Under the pieces are notes generated by a model. It was not told the DNA's origin. It did no database searches and saw only the letters and a list, made by a program, of their open reading frames with translations. A stretch of DNA of 63,771 bases, the filler included, from Stramenopiles sp. TOSAG23-2 (lineage: Eukaryota): NCBI GenBank assembly GCA_900128395.1. It is 24 parts of 24 records of this genome, joined end to end, with 100 filler letters (N's around TTAATTAATTAA, not from the genome) between each part and the next. Parts side by side here need not be neighbours in the genome. Positions count along the whole stretch, not along the records: positions 50,661 to 53,204 come from LT651663.1; 23 more parts are not named here. One strand, written 5' to 3'. The position numbers were made by a program, and so were the translations under genes. Shown here piece by piece: positions 2,755 to 58,490 of this stretch (its first letter is position 1; the number at the start of each line of letters is the position of its first letter).

Positions 2755-3065
2755 CCTTTCGTCTTTTTTAATATGAACACAGCAGGGGCCTTTTCGTCTT
2801 TTTCGTTATGAACACAGCAGGGGCTTTTCGTCTTTTTCGTTATGAACACAGCAGGGGCTTTTCGTCTTTTTCGTTATGAACACAGCAGGGGCTTTTCGTC
2901 TTTTTCGTTATGAACACAGCAGGGGCTTTTCGTCTTTTTCGTTATGAACACAGCAGGGGCTAAATCCGTTTCTGTTATATGAACACAGCAGGGGCTAAAT
3001 CCGTTTCCTTTTATATCAACATAGCAGGGGCCTTTTCGTCCTGTCGCATATGAACATAGCAGGGC
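2755..3065. repeat. 34-35 bp minisatellite, about 9 copies
   Basis: Unit ATGAACACAGCAGGGGCTTTTCGTCTTTTTCGTT at 2773, 2808, 2842, 2876, 2910, 2944, 2979, then degenerating. Confidence 0.92.
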
Positions 3066-11177: not shown

Positions 11178-11463
11178 ACTAGATCGCCGCATTAATAGAT
11201 GTATCAGATAATATATACATTACTAAGAAACATTTGTAAAATAGAAACACAAACAATTTAGTAATTATATATATATAAACATGGCATTGGTTGGTATACC
11301 GATACGGTTATTGCACGAAGACTAGATCGCCGCATTAATAGATGTATCAGATAATATATACATTACTAAGAAACATTTGTAAAATAGAAACACAAACAAT
11401 TTAGTAATTATATATATATAAACATGGCATTGGTTGGTATACCGATACGGTTATTGCACGAAG
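11178..11463. repeat. 143-bp tandem duplication covering the SmD3 upstream region and first 13 codons
   Basis: 11178-11320 equals 11321-11463; ATGs at 11281 and 11424. Confidence 0.95.
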
Positions 11464-14635: not shown

Positions 14636-14762
14636 CAGTAAATATATATATCCTATGTATGTGTGTGTAACGAATGAACTTATATAAATATATATCCAAT
14701 GTATGTGTGTGTAACGAATGAACTTATATAAATATATATCCATGTATGTGTGTGTAACGAAT
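14636..14762. repeat. ~44-bp tandem repeat, about 3 copies
   Basis: ATGTATGTGTGTGTAACGAATGAACTTATATAAATATATATCC repeated. Confidence 0.8.
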
Positions 14763-18714: not shown

Positions 18715-21282
18715 ATTGGTGATCAATACGAAATGTATGATGGTAGATATGTTGATTGGCAGGAAAACTTCAACCAAAGTGATGTTTCCACAATTAAGGC
18801 ACCACCTTTAATAAATTTTGGCATTAAACCATCTGAAATAGAAATATATTCTAGTGCTCAAGCAGCTATGAATTATATTGTGCGATTTTTTAATATCAAT
18901 TTATGCATAGGATGTCGCAAATCTGATTTATCAATTGTGTTAAAAGCACAAAAGGATAGATTAGAGAGAGTGAGTCCTAAAAAATTAAAAACGTTAAAAA
19001 AATCAAATATTTCAACATTGAATTGTTTTGTATCAAAAACTGTAAAAGATAGTAGTATTAGAGTACTTGGTGGTACTACAAGCACTAAACTATCCCCTGA
19101 GACCAGTCTCATGTATACTGAGTACAAGAACAACAATGGGTTATTGTCATCATCCTCATCTTCATTGCTACCATCATGCTCAAAATGGTCCATACGGCCA
19201 AATACTTGCAAAATTACTGTAGACAAAAATGGTACATGCTGTGATATATGCAACACAATACAAAAACGTTATTTGAAAGACTCAAATGAACGCCGCATAA
19301 AATCAAAAAGTGAAATATTAGAAGCACAAAAGAAGAAGAAAAAGGTGCTTCAAGAAAAATTGAGAAACCTCAAGAAAAAGTACAAACGCCTGGAGAATAA
19401 ATATGATGAGTTGACAGCAATACTAAATATATCAAAAGAAAGATCAAAACAATTAAGCACAGATGTTCAAGATTTAATAGCAAATGATACCAGTTCATTA
19501 GATAAAATTATTGCTTCAGAAGACAAAGATGCAGATGATGAAAATACAAATCATGCACTAGATGCACGAATTGAAATTATTGATGATGCTGCAAGCATAT
19601 TAATGGCACAAATCAAACATAGTGATTTAGAACAATTAGCAGATGCAGGGTATATATCAAAAAATACAAAAAACATTGAAATGGCAGCTGCATTGCTTAC
19701 ACATCAGGCAGATATGTATAAGCGGGCAAAAGATCAAAAGTCAAAAAAAGGAATACGATATTCAGACAAAGTATTTGCATTTGCAGTTGCTATAGAACGG
19801 ACATCACCAAATGCATATGAAATGTTACGATCAGTAATGACACTGCCAACGCGCGGGCAGTTACGTCGACAGCAATTTAGAGCACCATCAACAGATGGGG
19901 TTCGAGATGAGGATGTTGTTTTGCTAGAGCAACAATTAAAAAGGTTAGGTGGATTTAATAATTTTCATTTTTATAAATATAAAAATAAAAAATTATTACT
20001 TCTATCTGCCTCTCTAGATGCTATGGTTTGCCGAACTGGAGTATACTATGACTCCAATACTGATAAAATAGTTGGTTTTTGTGGGGAAGAAGTAATGAAT
20101 TTAAAGACAGTGGTGGAAGGATTCAATCACCATTATCTTGGCCACAAAGATTTGGCACGATATTGCAGTGTATTGATGGTTTCATCAACTGGTGGTGCAG
20201 AGAAATATACATTTCCGCTTGGTTCTTGGTGCACAAATACTATCACTGCAACCATGAATATTAGTTTTGTTATTGATGCAGTATTAAAACTAGCATTGTT
20301 TGACATGGTTTTTATCACTTTAGCTTGTGATGGTGCATCAGAAAATCGACTGATGATTAAACAATTAGCAACTGTTTCTGTCAAAGAAGTGTTAGATAAG
20401 ATGAATGAAAAGAATATTCAAAACCCTGCTTTAGCAAATGTTATCATGTCAAAGAGAGAAGAATACAAGGTTGCTTGCAACCACCCGTATTTTGATGGTA
20501 TTTTAATATTTTTTCTTAGTGATCCACCACACTTATTGAAAAAGTTAGCAGGAGCATTATTGAAAAGTAGTAATAGTAATAGAAGCAAAGCAATAAAACG
20601 AAATATGGTATACAATAATAAATATATAGATATAAATTATATAAGAAATATTTATACCAGCGATAAAAAAACCTCACAGTTACGATGTGGGTACAAATTA
20701 GATCCCAAGGCAATATGGCCCACCCCATGGAGCCGGATGCGTGTGTTTTTAGCATATCAATTATTTTCAACAGGATTGATAAATCGGATGACAGATGAAA
20801 TGAATACCAAGAACTGTCCAGAATATCAATCATTGATAGATTATATGTCAAACATTAATGGAATGTGGCATATTCTAAATTCTCGTGAGCCTGTTAAACA
20901 TCTATCACCAAAATGGCAGCAATTAGCAACACATGTCGATTGGTTTAATTCTTGGTTGCAGGCATGCGAAAAACCTGGGCCTGGCTTAACTAATGGTGGT
21001 CATAAAAAAAATGATAAGCCGCAATTTATACCATATCAGAGTTGGATTGATACACAATTAACTTGTACCTCATTGTCACTTGTTGTGTCATATTATTATC
21101 CAGCAGATCTACCAGAGAAAAAGCAACCAGTTATGCTAACATTCAGCCAGGATTGTGTGGAGAATTTATTTTCGAAGACACGTCAAGGAAACGGATCGAA
21201 CGATACTGCTACAGACCCAAATTCTTTTCGTCAAAGCCTGCAATATATAAGAAATGGCGGCTCTATATCTCAAAATAAATCA
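18715..21282 (+). mobile_element. P-element/THAP9-type transposase, uninterrupted ORF truncated at both contig ends
   Basis: SPNAYEMLRSVMTLP, SLDAM, CDGASEN, SDPPHLLKK, MRVFLAYQLFS, SQDCVENLFSKTR. Confidence 0.92.
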
Positions 21283-21983: not shown

Positions 21984-23611
21984 TCATATATTATTATCAT
22001 TATCACTAGTAGTATCATAACTACCTTTTTCTTCTTCTTGCATTACAGTAATCAATTCAATGCATTCACCTTCTCCATCGATGTCATTATTATTATCATT
22101 ATTGTCGTCTATATTATTATTATTATTTTGTATTTTATTTTTTTTCAAGTAATTTAAATTTAAATTAGGATTCAATTTTCTTGTATGTTCATAATCAAAA
22201 TTCCATATTAATTTACTTTTACATAATGGACAACAGCAGTGATCTATATAATTTGATTCCATTAAAAACCAATTTTCGATACATAAAGAACAATATGTAT
22301 GATCACATAATAAAGTTCGAACATATTTACCAGCTAATGATTCTAAACATATAGAACAACTTCCTTTGTTTTTCATTTGCAACTTATCTTTTTCATGATT
22401 CATATAATATTTCGGCATATTTTCGTCAATCATTGCCAAATCTATTTTCAATAATTCTATTTTTGGTTGTCTCCTCCTTCCACTCCGATTACTACTTTGT
22501 CGATAATTATATTGTTCATATTTACAAAAATAAATAATTCGAATATACTTACTTGTCAATAATTTATTTAAAGTATGCCATGATAGCATAACATTTAATC
22601 CAACAATAAAACTACCAACAAAAACTAAATCATTTCTATTTTGTGTTTTACAAGTCGATGTTTCATTAATACTTTCACTAATTCCATAAAGTAAACAAAT
22701 TGTGCTCATGATATGAATGAATGTTAAACTAAAATTTGTTATCGGAATATTATTACTGTTATTGTTATTGTTTCTTCTTCCATTCTTAATAACTAATTTC
22801 ATTACTAAATACGAATTCAATATTAAAAATAGTATAAAAGTAACAAAAGCAAGTATTGGTGGTGCACATTCTACAAATAAGATCACGATTATCAATGATA
22901 TTATAAAGATACATACAATTAAGAATTTGTAACATTTCATAAATTGTTGCAATTCACAAAATCTAGAATATCTTCTTATTGATTCTTCTTGTTGCTGTTG
23001 TCGCTGCTGCAGCTGTTGTTCAGTGATCACAACATTACTATTATCATTGTCATTATCAGATACATCTTGGTTTTTATACCATATAAAACCTTGTAATATG
23101 CTATTTGTAAATACATTAACTATAATCGACGGGACAGTGAAATGATTAATCAATATATAAGATTGTTTTTCTAGAGAAAGGATGTAAAAATTTTTTGACT
23201 TTTCCACATTTTTCCCGTATAAAAAAACAAAATTATCGCTAGAGATAATCAAACCAACAAATATAAATGCAATAATTGGCAAATGAATCACAGTTGAAAT
23301 TAAATTGACGTCTTTACTTTTTTGACAAAATTTCCTAGNNNNNNNNNNNNNNNNNNNNNNNNNNNNNNNNNNNNNNNNNNNNNNNNNNNNNNNNNNNNNN
23401 NNNNTTTCCTACAATTAATAACTTGATATGTTAACAACATAAGAATTACAGTTAAGAACGCGAAAAAGATTGATAAATTAAAAAAAACTAGTAATTCACA
23501 CTCATTATACACATTACCACGACAGTTTGAACCTTCAAAACAAGTTTGCATCTCAGGTGGTGGGCATCCTTCCATCCCACCAGTTAATAGTCTACTGCTA
23601 ACATTATACAT
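21984..23611 (-). CDS. Multi-pass membrane RING-finger E3 ubiquitin ligase
   Basis: Several TM segments and CSICLESL...CDHTYCSLCIENW...CPLCK; the 23339-23404 gap looks like a false gap because TAGGAAA overlaps both sides (VINCRK|FCQKSKD). Confidence 0.8.
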
Positions 23612-46158: not shown

Positions 46159-46838
46159 TTTAGTCAGTATTATTTTTGACTTTTGTAAAAGAAGATCAAT
46201 GAAAGAATAAAAAATGATATAAAATTTATTCTTTCTTTCTTTCTCCTGAGTATATATATATAATATATATGATATTTATATGTTTTGTGTTCTAATTAAG
46301 CTAATGTGTCATGTAACGATTAAATTTGTCACAGTTTGCCTTAGTATTTTTAATGCCTGCTATTTCAGTATTAATAAAATAACATTGCACAGTATGGGGG
46401 AAATCGCATAAGCGAAGAATTGAAAAGTATATCGAGAATTGAAGTAATATGATAAAAAAGTAACATATTAATATATGTGTTTTTCTCTTACTCATATGTT
46501 ATATAAAATTCTTTTACTCCNNNNNNNNNNNNNNNNNNNNNNNNNNNNNNNNNNNNNNNNNNNNNNNNNNNNNNNNNNNNNNNNNNNNNNNNNNNTCTCT
46601 TACTCATATGTTATATAAAATTCTTTTACTCCCGTTTACAATTTTATAATATATACTATACTGTGTATAATAGCACGATAATGCACATATTATTATCATA
46701 TATAGACGACTAATAAATTATGTTATACTAACACCAAAGATATATTATTTTTTAATACTCGTATCATCACACTAAATCTTATTGATTATATTTCACAAAA
46801 CATAAAAAATTTAATATTTTTTTTTTTATGCATACTTT

Positions 46839-50560: not shown

Positions 50561-51793
50561 NNNNNNNNNNNNNNNNNNNNNNNNNNNNNNNNNNNNNNNN
50601 NNNNTTAATTAATTAANNNNNNNNNNNNNNNNNNNNNNNNNNNNNNNNNNNNNNNNNNNNTACAAATATTCGATGTTAGTTTGGATCAATTACAAATCAG
50701 CATATATAGAAGAGAAAAAAGATTATTGATTGATCACCACGATTTACATTTATTTACTTACAGACTAAAATCATATTGATCAAATCAATATATCATATCA
50801 AGCCAACAAAGTACATTATAATACAAACAATACAATGATAATAAACAAATATCACATAATACAAATATTCGATGTTAGTTTGGATCAATTATAAATCAGC
50901 ATATAGAAAAAATTATTGATTGATCAACATCAATTTACATTTATTTACTTACACCCTAAATCATATTGATCAAATCAATAACATATCAAGCCAACCAAGT
51001 ACATAAAATGACAAATAATACAATGATTAAACAAATCACATAATACAAACATTCGATGTTAGTTTGGATCAATTACAAATCAGCATATAGAAGAGGAGAT
51101 TATTAAATGATTGATCAACATCATTTACATTTATTTACTTACAGACTAAATTCATATTGATCAAATCAATAACATATCAAGCCAACGAAGTACATTATAA
51201 TACAAACAATACAATGATTAAACAAATCACATAATACAAATATTCGATGTTAGTTTGGATCAATTACAAATCATCATATAGAAGAGAAAGAAGATTATTG
51301 ATTGATTGATCAACATCATTTACATTTATTTACTTACTTTCTAAATCATATTGATCAAATCAATAACATATCAAGCCAACCAAGTATATTATAATACAAA
51401 TAATACAATGATTAAACAAATCACATAATACAAACATTCGATGTTAGTTTGGATCAATTACAAATCAGCATATAGAAGAGCAATACAATGATTAAACAAA
51501 TCACATAGTACAAATATTCGATGTTAGTTTGGATCAATTACAAATAAGCATATAGAAAAGATTATTGATTGATCACCACGATTTACATTTATTTACTTAC
51601 AGACTAAATTCATATTGATCAAATCAATAACATATCAAGCCAACGAAGTACATTATAATACAAACAATACAATGATTAAACAAATCACATAATACAAACA
51701 TTCGATGTTAGTTTGGATCAATTACAAATCAGCATATATAGAAGAGAAAGAAGATTATTGATTGATCAACATCATTTACATTTATTTACTTAC

Positions 51794-51862
51794 AGCCGCA
51801 TTACCTGATACGACACTGTTACTTAAACTCAGTGTACCACCGTCTATAAAAAATCCTCCACC
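51794..51862 (-). CDS. 69-nt phase-0 exon encoding one Pmp-like / right-handed beta-helix repeat (GGGFFIDGGTLSLSNSVVSGNAA)
   Basis: Preceded by CTAAC..AAAAG, followed by GTAAGT; exactly 23 codons with no stop; GGGxxI..GGTLxLxNSxVSGNxA pattern. Confidence 0.85.
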
Positions 51863-52301
51863 CTTTTAATACGTATATATAATGTTAGTTTGGATCAATT
51901 ACAAATCAGCATATAGAAGAGCGAAGTACATTATAATACAAACAATACAATGATTAAACAAATCACATAGTACAAATATTCGATGTTAGTTTGGATCAAT
52001 TACAAATCACCATATAGAAGAGATTATTGATTGATCACCACGATTTACATTTATTTACTTACACCCTAAATCATATTGATCAAATCAATAACATATCAAG
52101 CCAACGAAGTACATTATAATACAAACAATACAATGATGAACAAATATCACATAATACAAATATTCGATGTTAGTTTGGATCAATTACAAATCACCATATA
52201 GAAGAGAAGATTATTGATTAATCAACACGATTTACAATTATTTACTTACATCCTAAATCATATTGATCAAATCAATAACATATCAAGCCAACGAAGTACA
52301 T

Positions 52302-52540
52302 AAAATACGTTGTATAAACCAATTGTACGAGAAACGCGTAAATTTAATCCATTGAGAATACCAAAAAAATTAGAACGAGCATTGCCATATAAAACTAAAC
52401 CAAAAGTCAATAAAAAGAAACGTAAAAACAATAAAACGAGCGAATTGTCTAAAGCAACTGCCGTTATTATGGAGCCAAAAGAACGTAAAATGTATACCAT
52501 GATGCAACAATTACGTACCGTTCGTAATGTGAAGACAAAA
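52302..52540 (+). pseudogene. BMS1: Captured fragment of the BMS1 ribosome-biogenesis GTPase C-terminus inside an array intron
   Basis: NTLYKPIVRETRKFNPLRIPKKLERALPYKTKPK...AVIMEPKERK; no ATG start and both ends fused to repeat sequence. Confidence 0.85.
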
Positions 52541-54011
52541 TAATACAAATATTCGATGTTAGTTTGGATCAATTACAAATCACCATATAGAAGAGAAGAA
52601 TATTGATTTATCAACATCATTTCCATTTATTTACTTACATACTAAATCATATTGATCAAATCAATAACATACCAAGCCAACGAAGTACATTATAATACAA
52701 ACAATACAATGATTATAAACAAATCACATAATACAAACATTCGATGTTAGTTTGGATCAATTACAAATCAGCATATAGAAAAGATTATTGATTGATCACC
52801 ACGATTTACATTTATTTACTTACACCCTAAATCATATTGATCAAATCAATAACACATCAAGCCAACGAATCACATTATAATACAAACAATACAATGATGA
52901 ACAAATATCACATAATACAAATATTCGATGTTAGTTTGGATCAATTACAAATCACCATATAGAAGAGAAGATTATTGATTGATCACCACGATTTACGTTT
53001 ATTTACTTACACCCTAAATCATATTGATCAAATCAATAACATTATCAAGAATAATACAAATATTCGATGTTAGTTTGGATCAATTACAAATCACCATATA
53101 GAAAAGATTATTGATTGATCACCACGATTTACATTTATTTACTTACACCCTAAATCATATTGATCAAATCAATAACATATCAAGCCAACGAAGTACATAA
53201 AATANNNNNNNNNNNNNNNNNNNNNNNNNNNNNNNNNNNNNNNNNNNNTTAATTAATTAANNNNNNNNNNNNNNNNNNNNNNNNNNNNNNNNNNNNNNNN
53301 NNNNCACTGCTATTATTATTATTACTATTATTATTATTATTACTATCACTATTATTATCTGGACGACTATTAGAAGAAGACTTTGGTACGTCAATGGTTA
53401 ACGATGCCATAATCAATGTTTATTATTGTATGTATAATATATATAAATAATATATATATATATTCTTGTATATCTGGTAAGACGAAAGAAGAATTAAATA
53501 AAAAATCAGTTGGTTAAAACTGAATGTATCGGATGACTTGTTCTTTCTATTCATATATATGTGTATATATAGAGAGAAATCTGTTTATTTAATATATTTA
53601 TTATTTTTTGTATTTGTTAGTAAAAATGCAATGATAATACGTGTTATTTATTGATGATCAGGTTGTTTTTATGTTTTCCTCATCATTTTAATTTTTCGTC
53701 ACAAACAAGGTGGAATTATAAGTACAGACGTTAGAATACCATATCTATGACATTAAATTCCAATTTGAATTTAATTCCAAAAACACCTTAAAAATAAAAA
53801 TCTTTAAAAATCACCCACACCAAAAATAAAAATATATATCCTTTTATCAAATGAAATAAAGAGAGGCACACACAGAGGTATATATTTTCATTTTCAAACA
53901 ACGTGTTACATTATATTCAATATAAGAAGTAACACAGATCTCCAAAAGAAAATATATTTAAAAGCGTTGATTAAGATACATTCATAAATACAAGTCTGTA
54001 TAAGAACGATA

Positions 54012-55532
54012 ATGATGATTAATACAATACGACAAAAGATAAAAAGTGCCATGTCTTTCCAACTTGGATATAATAACAAATTATTGCCATCAGCAATAAT
54101 TTCAAAGAAATCAATATCAACAACTACTGTAGCATGTAGTAATAATAATAATAAGTCATCTTCTCATATTAAAACAACATTTGAAAAGAATGTAATGGCG
54201 ACATATGGAAGATTTGATATTTGTTTAGATCATGGGAATGGTACATATGTACATGATGTAAAAGGCAAGAAGTATTTAGATATAGGTGGTGGTATAGCTG
54301 TAAATGCATTAGGACATGCTCATCCAGAAATTGTAAAAACAATCCATGAACAAGCATCAAAACTTATACATTGTTCCAATTTATATTATACTGAATCACA
54401 AGGCAATTTAGCAAATCGTTTGATTGAATATTTAGGTGAAGATGGCAAAGTTTTTTTCAGTAATAGTGGCGCAGAAGCAAATGAAGGTTTATACAAATTA
54501 GCACGTGCATATGGCCAAGAGTCAAAACGACATAAAATTATTACTGCAACGAATTCATTTCATGGCCGGACGTTAGGTGGAATTGCAGCTACAGGACAAG
54601 ATAAAATAAAAAAAGGATTTTATCCAATGATCGATGGATTTGACCACGTGCCATTTAATGATTTAAATGCAATGGAAAATACTATTGATGATCAAACTTC
54701 TGCTATTTTAATTGAAGGGATACAAGGGGAAGGTGGTGTAACACCAGCAACACCAGAATATCTATTAGGTTTACGAAAATTATGTGATGAAAAAAATATT
54801 TTATTAATGTTTGATAGTGTTCAATGTGGTCATTTTCGATCTGGTAGATTTCAATCTTATCAACGAATTTTAGAAGATATTGAAAATACATTTCAACCAG
54901 ATGCTATTTCCATGGCTAAATCATTAGGTGGCGGAATACCAATTGGAGCATTTTGGGTAAAAGAGAAACATAGTTCATTACTTAGTGCTGGTATGCATGG
55001 TACAACATATGGTGGTAATCCATTATCATGTTCCATTGCTTTGACAATCTTAGATGTGTAAGTATGAATCTGAGTTTTAAAAAAGTATCTTTTTTATTTT
55101 CTTTTAAGCTTTCTCTTTTTCACTTCATGTCTATATACATGTATATCTAACATTTTGTTTTTATTTTTTTTCATATGCAGTATTGAAAAGGAAAATTTAG
55201 AAGAAAATGTACGTAATGTTGGAGATTTTTTTCTAAAAGAAATTGGAGAGAATTTACAAAAAATATATCCAGAAGTAATTGATGGTATTCAAGGTATGGG
55301 TTGTATGTTGGGTATACGTTTAAAACAAGCAAATGAAATCCCACGTTTTTCAAGACATTCAGAAACAACCTCTGCAATTCAGTTTGTCAATGCATTACAT
55401 GATGTAGGTGTATTAACTGTACCAGCTGGTGAAAATATTGTTCGTTTATTACCACCATTGAATATACAAAAAAATGAAATGAATGAAGCATTAGATCATA
55501 TTGAAACCGTTTGCAAAATTAGTATGGTATAG
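54012..55532 (+). CDS. argD: Acetylornithine aminotransferase with transit peptide; intron 55058-55180
   Basis: YLDIGGGIAVNALGHAHP, FFSNSGAEANE, SFHGRTLG, QGEGG, MAKSLGGGIPIGA, HGTTYGGNPL; a GTAAGT..CTAAC..TGCAG intron joins LDV|IEKENL in frame. Confidence 0.93.
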
Positions 55533-56689: not shown

Positions 56690-58490
56690 ATGCGGACAAA
56701 GAAAAGAAGCAGTAATATACAATTAAGAAGTCCAAAAAGTCCAAAAACGTCACCGCCGAAGTCGTATGGTAAGAACAGAAGTAATAAAAAGCATCGATTT
56801 TTAACTCATGTGTTTAAACCCGTGCAAGTTTCTGGTTCAACTAATATGAACATATGTCAAAGTGTAGATTTTTATACATATACGTCATCACCAAAAATAC
56901 ACATTGGTAAACAGAAATATTTAAAAGAACGTAAGTACAATCACAAACAATTATCCATTATCCATGTCCTCTTTTTTTCCTAGGTGATATTTTTCTAGAA
57001 TATAGAAAGGACTAACAGGAAACATCAATTGCTATTTACAACATAGGCGCTCCATGGTTTTCTAATTTAATTGATTCTAATTTTAAAGAACCAGAGACGT
57101 GGGAAGTAGTGGATAAAAACAGTCTAGGTGAACTAACAGACGAAGACTGGTTAGTAAAGGAAAAAAATGCATCCGTACGTTTATGCAATAAATTAAAGAA
57201 CATAATACAGAAAAATAACGAGATTCAAGAATCTACTGTAAAAATTCAAAGTTTACAACGAGCTAGAAAGGCTCGCCGTGTGTATCAAGAGACAAAAGAA
57301 TCTACAGATGCAGCAATTAAAATACAAGCTATACAACGCGGGCGTAAAGCAAGAGCAAAGCAAATACAAGATAAAAATATAGTATTAGAAAGGCCAAAAA
57401 AAATTGCATTACGCCAAGCAAGAAAAACGGGTTCAATACGTTCTGTAAAAGAAGAAATAAATATGATAAACGAGAAAGAAACGAAAAAGAAAGAGTACGC
57501 AGCAACCAAACTACAAGCGTTACATCGTGGCAGAGATGCACGCAAAAATGTCAATCTGAAGAAGAAGAATACACTAACCGTAAATACTGATGAAATTAAT
57601 AGGACTAAAAATATACGACAAGCAAATCAACGCGGTGCACGAGTTTTAACCCCACATGAAATTCGTATGAAAAAAATTGCTGCAGTGGAAAAACGTATAA
57701 ATGCTGACTACGAAGAATTAGGTAGAGAAAAACTAGATGAGAAGGACAGCAACAAGGCACTGTTGGAGGAAAAAGACCAGCACGATGCTGCAATCAAGCT
57801 TCAAGCTTTACAGCGTGGAAGGGATGCACGGAAAAGCATATCAGAAAAACAAAAACAAAGAGAAAAGGAAAATGCTGGTATACGTGAAATAATATCAATT
57901 AGGGATACAATGAATGATGATGATAATAATAATACTAATAATGGTGATAAAAATATCAAGGAAGAACAGCCAAAGATAACACCAGAATGGACTTTGAGTC
58001 CAAACACTATGGAAGACAAAATCGAAGGATTATTTCAATTTATTCAAAGGGTGGATGATGATAATTATGATTCTTATATAGGCAGTTCTTTGCTCTCTAT
58101 TCCACGTAAACAACTATTAGAATTGGTAGAGAAACACAGAAATAGAATTGATAATTATTTGAAACAAGATGAATTTTTAAAAACCTTTATATTAGGTCCA
58201 AATTTAAGTTTGTCATTAACAAGTAAATATAAATCCATGCAAATCAATGTAACACCAAAGATGATAAATGAACTATTAACCGCACAACAAGTTCTTGCAC
58301 CGAGACTTGAAATAACAGGGGAACATAGCAATCACTTCGCAATTCATGCAATTGACCATGAGGAACCAAGTAACGAGAGCAATGTTCATGATAAAAAGCG
58401 TAAGAAACATAAAAAAGATAAGAAGAAGAAGAAGCATAAAAAAGAGAAAAAGGAAAAAAAAAGTAAAAAAGATAAAAAAAAAAAGAAAAG
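56690..58490 (+). CDS. IQ-motif calmodulin-binding protein; 5' exon structure unresolved, 3' truncated
   Basis: KIQSLQRARKAR, KIQAIQRGRKAR, KLQALHRGRDAR, KLQALQRGRDAR; probable first exon 56690-~56930. Confidence 0.75.

Follow-up and report, generated by a model that had tools for sequence, protein, structure and literature searches.

The contig at positions 50661–53204 of the window (the whole 63,771-base stretch of DNA that was analysed) consists of a head-to-tail array of near-identical, intron-like repeat units, in the midst of which lies a single 69-nt open frame whose peptide plausibly represents one coil of a PMP-type beta-solenoid. We consider that this may well, though by no means surely, reflect a family of introner-like introns plus a single coil exon from a multi-copy repeat gene, both lying on a repeat-tangle contig. 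Were this so, the contig would be a piece of a high-copy, intron-derived (introner-like) repeat family from an AT-rich marine microbial eukaryote.

In order to judge how much of the surrounding DNA can be used as context, the make-up of the window has to be taken into account. It joins 24 unrelated contigs of ∼2.55 kb each, ordered by length, with 23 linkers of the form N44-TTAATTAATTAA-N44 between the pieces (46 runs of 44 N); two more N runs, at 23339–23404 and 46521–46595, sit within contigs. As the window is a joining of unrelated contigs, only 50661–53204 counts as real context, and neighbourhood across a linker carries no information. The assembly is AT-rich and fragmented, with 27–35 % G+C across the window, and the other contigs display long ORFs with Asn-rich runs. 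Within the contig, exact internal repeats of ≥ 31 nt cover 77 % of the 2544 bp (those of ≥ 55 nt cover 53 %, and the longest is 118 nt), so that the order of the units there is not trustworthy; the 2544-bp contig is not a reliable gene model. The main features of the contig, with strand where one applies, are as follows.

50661–53204: the 2544-bp contig with the finding, with N44-TTAATTAATTAA-N44 linkers at both ends
52824–53010, minus strand: unit U2, a typical unit of 187 nt, which opens with GTAAGT as donor, carries ACTAAC at position 75, lacks any internal AG and closes with a TTTAG acceptor, followed by spacer GGT
52828–52844 and 52979–52995: arms of an inverted repeat in the DNA, 17 nt, 82 % complementary, which pair as a stem in the RNA fold
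51863–51889, minus strand: 3′-terminal part of the intron that precedes the exon, with a branch-site-like ACTAAC and the AG acceptor 21 nt downstream of it
51794–51862, minus strand: 69-nt open frame of 23 codons, phase 0/0, with the translated peptide GGGFFIDGGTLSLSNSVVSGNAA, one candidate PMP-type coil
51601–51793, minus strand: unit U7, complete and directly downstream of the exon, GTAAGT...GAATTTAG, then spacer TCT
51402–51557: internal 80-nt duplication in unit U8

Analysis with TRF returned a period of ∼187–191 with 89–91 % matches, and on the strand of the exon we counted 12 GTAAGTAAATAA donors and 11 acceptors of the ..TTTAG type. The family core GATCCAAACTAACATCGAAT, 20 nt around the branch-site-like ACTAAC, is present in 14 copies (13 exact and one with three mismatches) against 0.05 expected; all 14 are on the minus strand within 50661–53204, with none in the other 23 contigs. 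Of the 12 units, U12 is cut off by the contig end; the other 11 close with an acceptor of the TTTAG type, which in ten cases stands before a 3-nt spacer and in U6 is the exon's own AG. The distance from branch site to terminal TTTAG is 102–109 nt in the units and 55 nt in U1, which carries a deletion. Besides the duplication in U8, a similar jump-back, to CTCTTCTATATG, was found in U6, just upstream of the exon.

The interior of the units is marked by the absence of a single dinucleotide. Each of the seven regular units has zero interior AGs, where base composition predicts 7.5–8.4 and GA occurs 8–11 times, and at most two of 20,000 shuffles reached zero, figures that describe one inherited property of related copies, not seven independent tests. 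Across the 11 complete units, nine have AG only at the donor and the terminus; the exceptions are U4, with a foreign insert, and U6, with the exon. Since the interior lacks AG, a scan from the branch site meets its first AG at the end of the unit, as precise excision from a distant branch point requires. The avoidance could also reflect the low-complexity T/G/A word structure of the unit. When folded as RNA on the intron-sense strand, the unit joins its donor-proximal and acceptor-proximal segments in a stem of ∼25 bp (−37.4 kcal/mol vs −21.4 for the other strand), with a z-score of −1.13, which is not significant. A search of both strands of the contig against Rfam, with E up to 1, returned no family. 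For reference, ORFs that continue across the gap established two introns in other contigs, at 55058–55180 (plus strand, in an aminotransferase-like ORF) and 56931–57046 (plus strand); each combines a GTAAGT donor with a CTAAC branch site, followed ∼30 nt on by a YAG, and shows a yeast-like strong branch-site consensus. Judged by these motifs, the repeat units look like precisely spliceable introns with splice signals matching those of the organism's real introns, and the ∼187-nt unit would appear to hold all that the spliceosome of this organism needs for exact removal, namely GTAAGT, CTAAC, no AG before the terminal TTTAG, and the stem.

The 69-nt frame is flush with the acceptor ACTAACATTATATATACGTATTAAAAG upstream and the donor GTAAGTAAATAAATG (GTAAGT) downstream, and has a G+C content of 43 %, compared with 27 % for the repeat unit. 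An earlier, sequence-only reading had described an exon encoding this peptide, amid pieces that it took for micro-exons, and had placed its boundaries at the linker between coils. Translation and the map of donors and acceptors confirmed the frame and the pieces as features of the sequence, far from chance; at the level of sequence, the placing of the boundaries was borne out as well, the exon ends coinciding with those of a GGx-hydrophobic ... N-x-A coil. The frame behaves like a phase-0/phase-0 exon with ends that match the ends of one PMP-type coil, and it would on these grounds be a true exon-type cassette, specifying a single coil in a beta-solenoid repeat of the PMP type (GGxh...NxA).

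Assignment of the peptide to the PMP coil type is plausible from its motif, and makes it a candidate member only. With Chlam_PMP (PF02415) and bacterial GGxI...NxA beta-solenoid coils it shares a 23-residue period, a GGG-hydrophobic start, alternating hydrophobic/Ser strand residues and a G-N-A-A end; unlike Chlam_PMP, the coil junction covered by the profile is split by an intron here, and the host is a eukaryote. Searches with the 23-aa peptide found no family among Pfam and NCBIfam profiles (E up to 10) and no match among PDB sequences, whilst tblastn against plasmids gave three records of one Streptomyces protein, P0002, at E = 4, which is not significant. P0002 contains tandem GGGI...GN.A coils, and the peptide aligns with three consecutive ones gap-free and in register (13/23, 11/23 and 10/21 identities). 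The Streptomyces protein itself has a sub-threshold Chlam_PMP match (E = 0.047, 14.4 bits vs a cut-off of 20.6), in which the 19-position profile matches STVTGNTATSSGGGIY, the junction of two coils. Because the profile spans the NxA...GGxI coil junction, a lone GG-to-NAA exon can hardly score, and the profile test has little power. The motif GGx(I/L/V/F)...(F/V)xxNxA, which has a period of ∼20–25 residues in PMP/POMP repeats, occurs once in the window, with no tandem repetition visible, and a search with the coil motif in six frames of the whole window found no second coil exon in contig or window, its one match being the known exon. The proposal of a Pmp-like arrangement with one exon per coil thus held in part: it gains from the in-register alignment with P0002 and from the in-frame exon variants of two DNA runs (see below), and gains nothing from the Pfam, NCBIfam and PDB searches or from a match at E = 4.

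To compare the contig with independent data, sampled words from it were sought in 24 public sequencing runs; they were partly present in 20, with no run holding half of them. Contigs were then compared for four runs: X1 (DNA), X3 (seawater metagenome), and X15 and X17 (RNA). In X1, 48 contigs matched, of which 22 fit two places, and in X3 there were 82, of which 31 did so, as expected from a tangled repeat; no listed piece from these two runs is longer than 109 nt. The exon is covered by several variant contigs in both DNA runs, X1 and X3 (among those listed, two in X1 and eight in X3 that carry one variant letter). The substitutions are G>T at codon 22 (A22S; eight X3 contigs), L11V, and D7E or D7Y, and two X3 contigs have an alternative first third, GGGFCVSS..., behind a TTTTAAG acceptor. 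Exon-copy variation therefore falls at residues 5–8, 11 and 22, all of the variants being in frame with no indel listed, vs eight indel sites listed in the intron-like parts, a weak comparison given that the exon is only 69 nt. The exon is multi-copy, keeps the position of its acceptor and varies mainly inside itself, which supports one coil per exon and not variability delivered by the triplets. Further copies of the exon, for which the sequence-only reading had proposed a search, are visible as in-frame variants in X1 and X3, the window giving the one motif match. Under the reading that we prefer, the coil exon would be one of a family of exons present in many copies, with the 5′ module of the repeat common to the introns on either side of them; each exon would encode one coil, and the coil genes probably expanded as units of exon plus intron were duplicated.

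The same runs bear on how the family is embedded in the genome. One X1 contig starts in the exon, covers the first ∼40 nt of the intron and then leaves the family for 255 nt or more of unrelated DNA. Points at which X1 contigs depart in this manner, each time for at least 255 nt, are 51753, 52874 and 52906; from these loose ends it follows that parts of the family also border unique DNA. Other breaks in the X1 contigs fall 10 nt before the exon starts and 4 nt inside the donor. With regard to RNA, X15 gave one 33-nt low-complexity match and X17 no match, which counts neither for nor against expression, and no splice joints were found in X1, X3, X15 or X17, the RNA runs being without usable cover. 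Exact-pattern scans gave zero matches for the family core in genome-contig and viral-contig collections, for the junction pattern in the genome-contig collection, and for the exon 23-mer in the viral-contig and genome-contig collections. The 20-nt donor module was found at 34 loci in a metagenome collection, and BLASTN of the contig against these loci aligned at most 46 nt; alignments of ≤ 46 nt around a 20-mer identify the 34 loci as chance matches, with no relative found among them.

Between each acceptor and the following donor lies a spacer, and all 11 of these are exactly 3 nt in length.

53147–53149, minus strand: spacer GGT
53011–53013, minus strand: spacer GGT
52824–52826, minus strand: spacer GGT
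52639–52641, minus strand: spacer TAT
52250–52252, minus strand: spacer GAT
52063–52065, minus strand: spacer GGT
51601–51603, minus strand: spacer TCT
51338–51340, minus strand: spacer AAA (AGA in run X1)
51143–51145, minus strand: spacer TCT
50953–50955, minus strand: spacer GGT
50762–50764, minus strand: spacer TCT, its junction bridged with 0 differences by a 109-nt X1 contig

Read in order, the spacers are GGT GGT GGT TAT GAT GGT, then the 69-nt frame, then TCT AAA TCT GGT TCT, which translate to G G G Y D G before the exon and S K S G S after it, with no stop codon; the full-inclusion peptide GGGYDG-...-SKSGS proposed beforehand was in this way reproduced from the 11 spacers. A TTTTAG-TCT-GTAAGT junction is spanned without a difference by one contig of X1 and the TAT junction by a second, so that local unit-triplet-unit junctions exist in the reads of another data set. 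At 51339 the AAA spacer reads AGA in X1 (one contig, at a depth of 82.7 of 82.7; depth figures for the runs are sums over contigs and were unused as copy numbers), which means that there are more spacer types than the contig displays. In an alignment of the seven regular units (180–200 nt) of the 12, from which the five irregular or truncated units were omitted, the spacer columns were among the most variable, at 0.99–1.45 bits vs a mean of 0.20, and one of them ranked first among all columns. This excess of triplet variability over the rest of the unit is left unexplained by simple tandem duplication. The G+C content of the spacers (14/33) is like that of the exon and unlike that of the units. 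Wherever a triplet recurs, however, the sequence on either side recurs with it, identical over as much as 118 nt, and the junctions hence represent ∼5 types rather than 11 independent ones. On the preferred reading the spacers would be junctions between tandem intron units, and nothing observed marks them as expressed micro-exons. As the reading frame survives an added 'intron + 3 nt', we infer that in a coding context only duplicates or insertions of 'intron + 3n' would be tolerated, which would fix the spacer at one codon and explain why no other spacer length persisted.

One unit, U4, holds a piece of an unrelated gene.

52304–52540, plus strand: internal slice of BMS1 (ribosome biogenesis), 79 codons, antisense to the units, replacing ∼29 nt inside U4

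The slice matches residues 1149–1222 of human BMS1 (E = 3.5 × 10−12) and is identical at 76 of 79 positions (96 %) to residues 1015–1093 of a metagenomic BMS1 of 1144 aa (P0003). It is cut within coding sequence at both ends, P0003 continuing on both sides, and it adds three AGs after the U4 branch site. The BMS1 bins have no cover in X1 and ∼0.5 in X3, the latter from a contig that runs on unlike; such holes can be caused by the filter, and these gaps in cover neither show nor exclude a chimera. The slice may be a templated insertion, a captured gene fragment or a chimera; its presence, like the order of the units, may stem from the route taken through a tangled repeat graph or from rearrangement at this place.

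These observations can be set against several other accounts of the contig. That a real gene splices in chains of 3-nt exons here, each between two introns of the family, with G/S/Y/D/K loops set between the constant coils of a diversified surface receptor, is in our judgement quite improbable, even though every one of the 11 spacers is 3 nt with none a stop, their columns are the most variable of the unit and their G+C (14/33) is exon-like, the units are oriented as the exon, and an AG-free interior would let each unit be cut out exactly if transcribed; to this may be added that single 3-nt exons exist in animals, according to the available portions of the literature. Such a chain sits badly with U4, which carries antisense BMS1 and three extra AGs, and with the internal duplications of U6 and U8. 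Its order depends on a contig with 77 % exact repeats, its ∼5 spacer types have same-triplet flanks identical up to 118 nt, no second linked coil exon is present in contig or window, and variation between exon copies falls inside the exon. The sequence-only reading had the micro-exons supply the variable loop of the coil; with exon variation located where it is, a BMS1 slice in U4 and the order unreliable, that claim is unsupported. A related account, in which a transcribed array has its units removed recursively, each leaving one codon, and in which amplification of 'intron + 3 nt' writes variable G/S/Y/D/K linkers between one-exon-per-coil beta-helix repeats, we regard as improbable too, although unit-by-unit removal in an intron-defining organism would, if the array is transcribed, leave codons in the mRNA, for which reason a micro-exon reading is not absurd. 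If the account by recursive removal were true, introns would have a means of extending and varying proteins that leaves the reading frame intact.

A non-genic satellite derived from an exon–intron unit of a repeat gene, with the frame as a relic, the units untranscribed and the splice features left over, is unlikely but deserves to be taken seriously: the units are tandem, head to tail and on the same strand, some differ by indels or carry internal duplications, one of them tolerates a slice of a foreign gene, there is one exon among 12 units, and contigs from two runs are all short, many fitting two places. Weighing the other way is the fact that AG avoidance has been kept in seven of seven regular units despite ∼10 % divergence, as is, more weakly, the finding that exon variants are in frame and conservative with no indels, vs eight indel sites in the intron-like parts, given a length of 69 nt only. 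Stitching of dispersed intron copies, the coil exon and BMS1 by the path of an assembler or by amplification chimeras seems distinctly unlikely as an account of the whole; the bridging of the TCT junction (0 differences) and the TAT junction by X1 contigs argues against it, and a k-mer assembler cannot invent a unit-triplet-unit junction, so that only the long-range order can be artefactual. For that order the highly fragmented assembly (24 contigs of ∼2.55 kb in the window), the exact repeats of up to 118 nt, the BMS1 slice cut at both ends in coding sequence, and the X1 contigs that stop just short of the exon (by 10 nt) or just inside its donor (by 4 nt) all speak in favour of an artefact. 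Finally, tandem units of ∼190 nt with a strong donor each would be reminiscent of spliced-leader RNA genes, in which a mini-exon ends at the triplet and is followed by the donor and an intron-like tail. This we hold to be highly improbable, as neither strand matched any Rfam family with E up to 1, complete units end in an acceptor as well, and an exon that codes for protein is followed by the same donor module.

Recursive splice sites (ratchet points) are known from long Drosophila introns, and have in common with the array a 3′ splice site that abuts a strong GTAAGT 5′ splice site, making stepwise removal mechanistically conceivable. Single 3-nt micro-exons occur in animals, in hth, RPS24, MAP4K5 and cytohesin-1, according to the same available portions of the literature. 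Animal ratchet points and 3-nt exons are single sites in unique introns, whereas here a chain of up to six lies in a protist repeat array, known from DNA alone. Chains of 3-nt exons between repeated introns are not described in the available portions of the literature on 3-nt exons and introners. The diversity of VLRs arises by somatic DNA copy-choice of whole LRR cassettes and not by micro-exon splicing, and all that the contig shares with them is the notion that variable inserts sit on a solenoid scaffold that stays constant. No sign of somatic or combinatorial choice was seen here, and nothing stands behind the suggestion of a recognition receptor or antigenic-variation protein analogous to VLRs; that claim is unsupported and, on present data (2.5 kb of unreliable assembly), is not to be carried forward.

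The introner-like nature of the family, which we put forward as the preferred reading, follows from comparison with introners as they are presented in the available portions of Gozashti et al. (2022; PMC9860276). There they are transposon-derived intron families of marine protists and fungi, GC-poor and 30–654 nt in length, often with TIRs and with TSDs of 3–9 bp, and some families carry both splice sites and add codons to mRNA. Common to these and to the present units are many near-identical, GC-poor, intron-sized copies with both splice sites and, more loosely, inverted repeats towards their ends; the contig supplies 12 such units with 89–91 % matches within one genome, all of them in the sense orientation of the exon. 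Unlike introners, the copies here are head to tail and 3 nt apart, with no TSD evident. Observations related to TIRs and TSDs comprise a subterminal inverted repeat (17 nt, 82 %) and equal flanking triplets in three of 11 units. A model of a TIR-bounded MITE was rejected because the right inverted-repeat arm lies 15 nt inside the unit, as was one with TSDs because equal flanking triplets are found in only those three. The word 'tandem' has zero occurrences in the available portions of two introner papers (PMC9860276 and PMC12130899), whose supplementary tables might list the organism or family.

If the local anatomy is that of the genome, the array would represent an introner-like family that amplifies head to tail, with spacers of one codon and an interior purged of AG. 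This head-to-tail form, unmentioned in the available portions of PMC9860276 and PMC12130899, would link intron gain, tandem repeats and the growth of repeat proteins, and, if real, the anatomy would offer a natural test case for whether a spliceosome is able to process chains of 3-nt exons. If it is instead a path through a repeat graph only, it would serve as a caution that where a protist assembly is fragmented, its short contigs can take on the look of exotic genes.

Elsewhere in the window, other contigs contain repeats and coding sequence of their own. A perfect tandem duplication of 143 bp (2.0 copies, 100 % matches) occupies 11178–11463, and further minisatellites are located at 2757–3031 (34–35 bp) and 14644–14762 (44 bp). 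On the plus strand at 18715–21282, an ORF of ∼870 codons spans an entire contig and is open at both ends.
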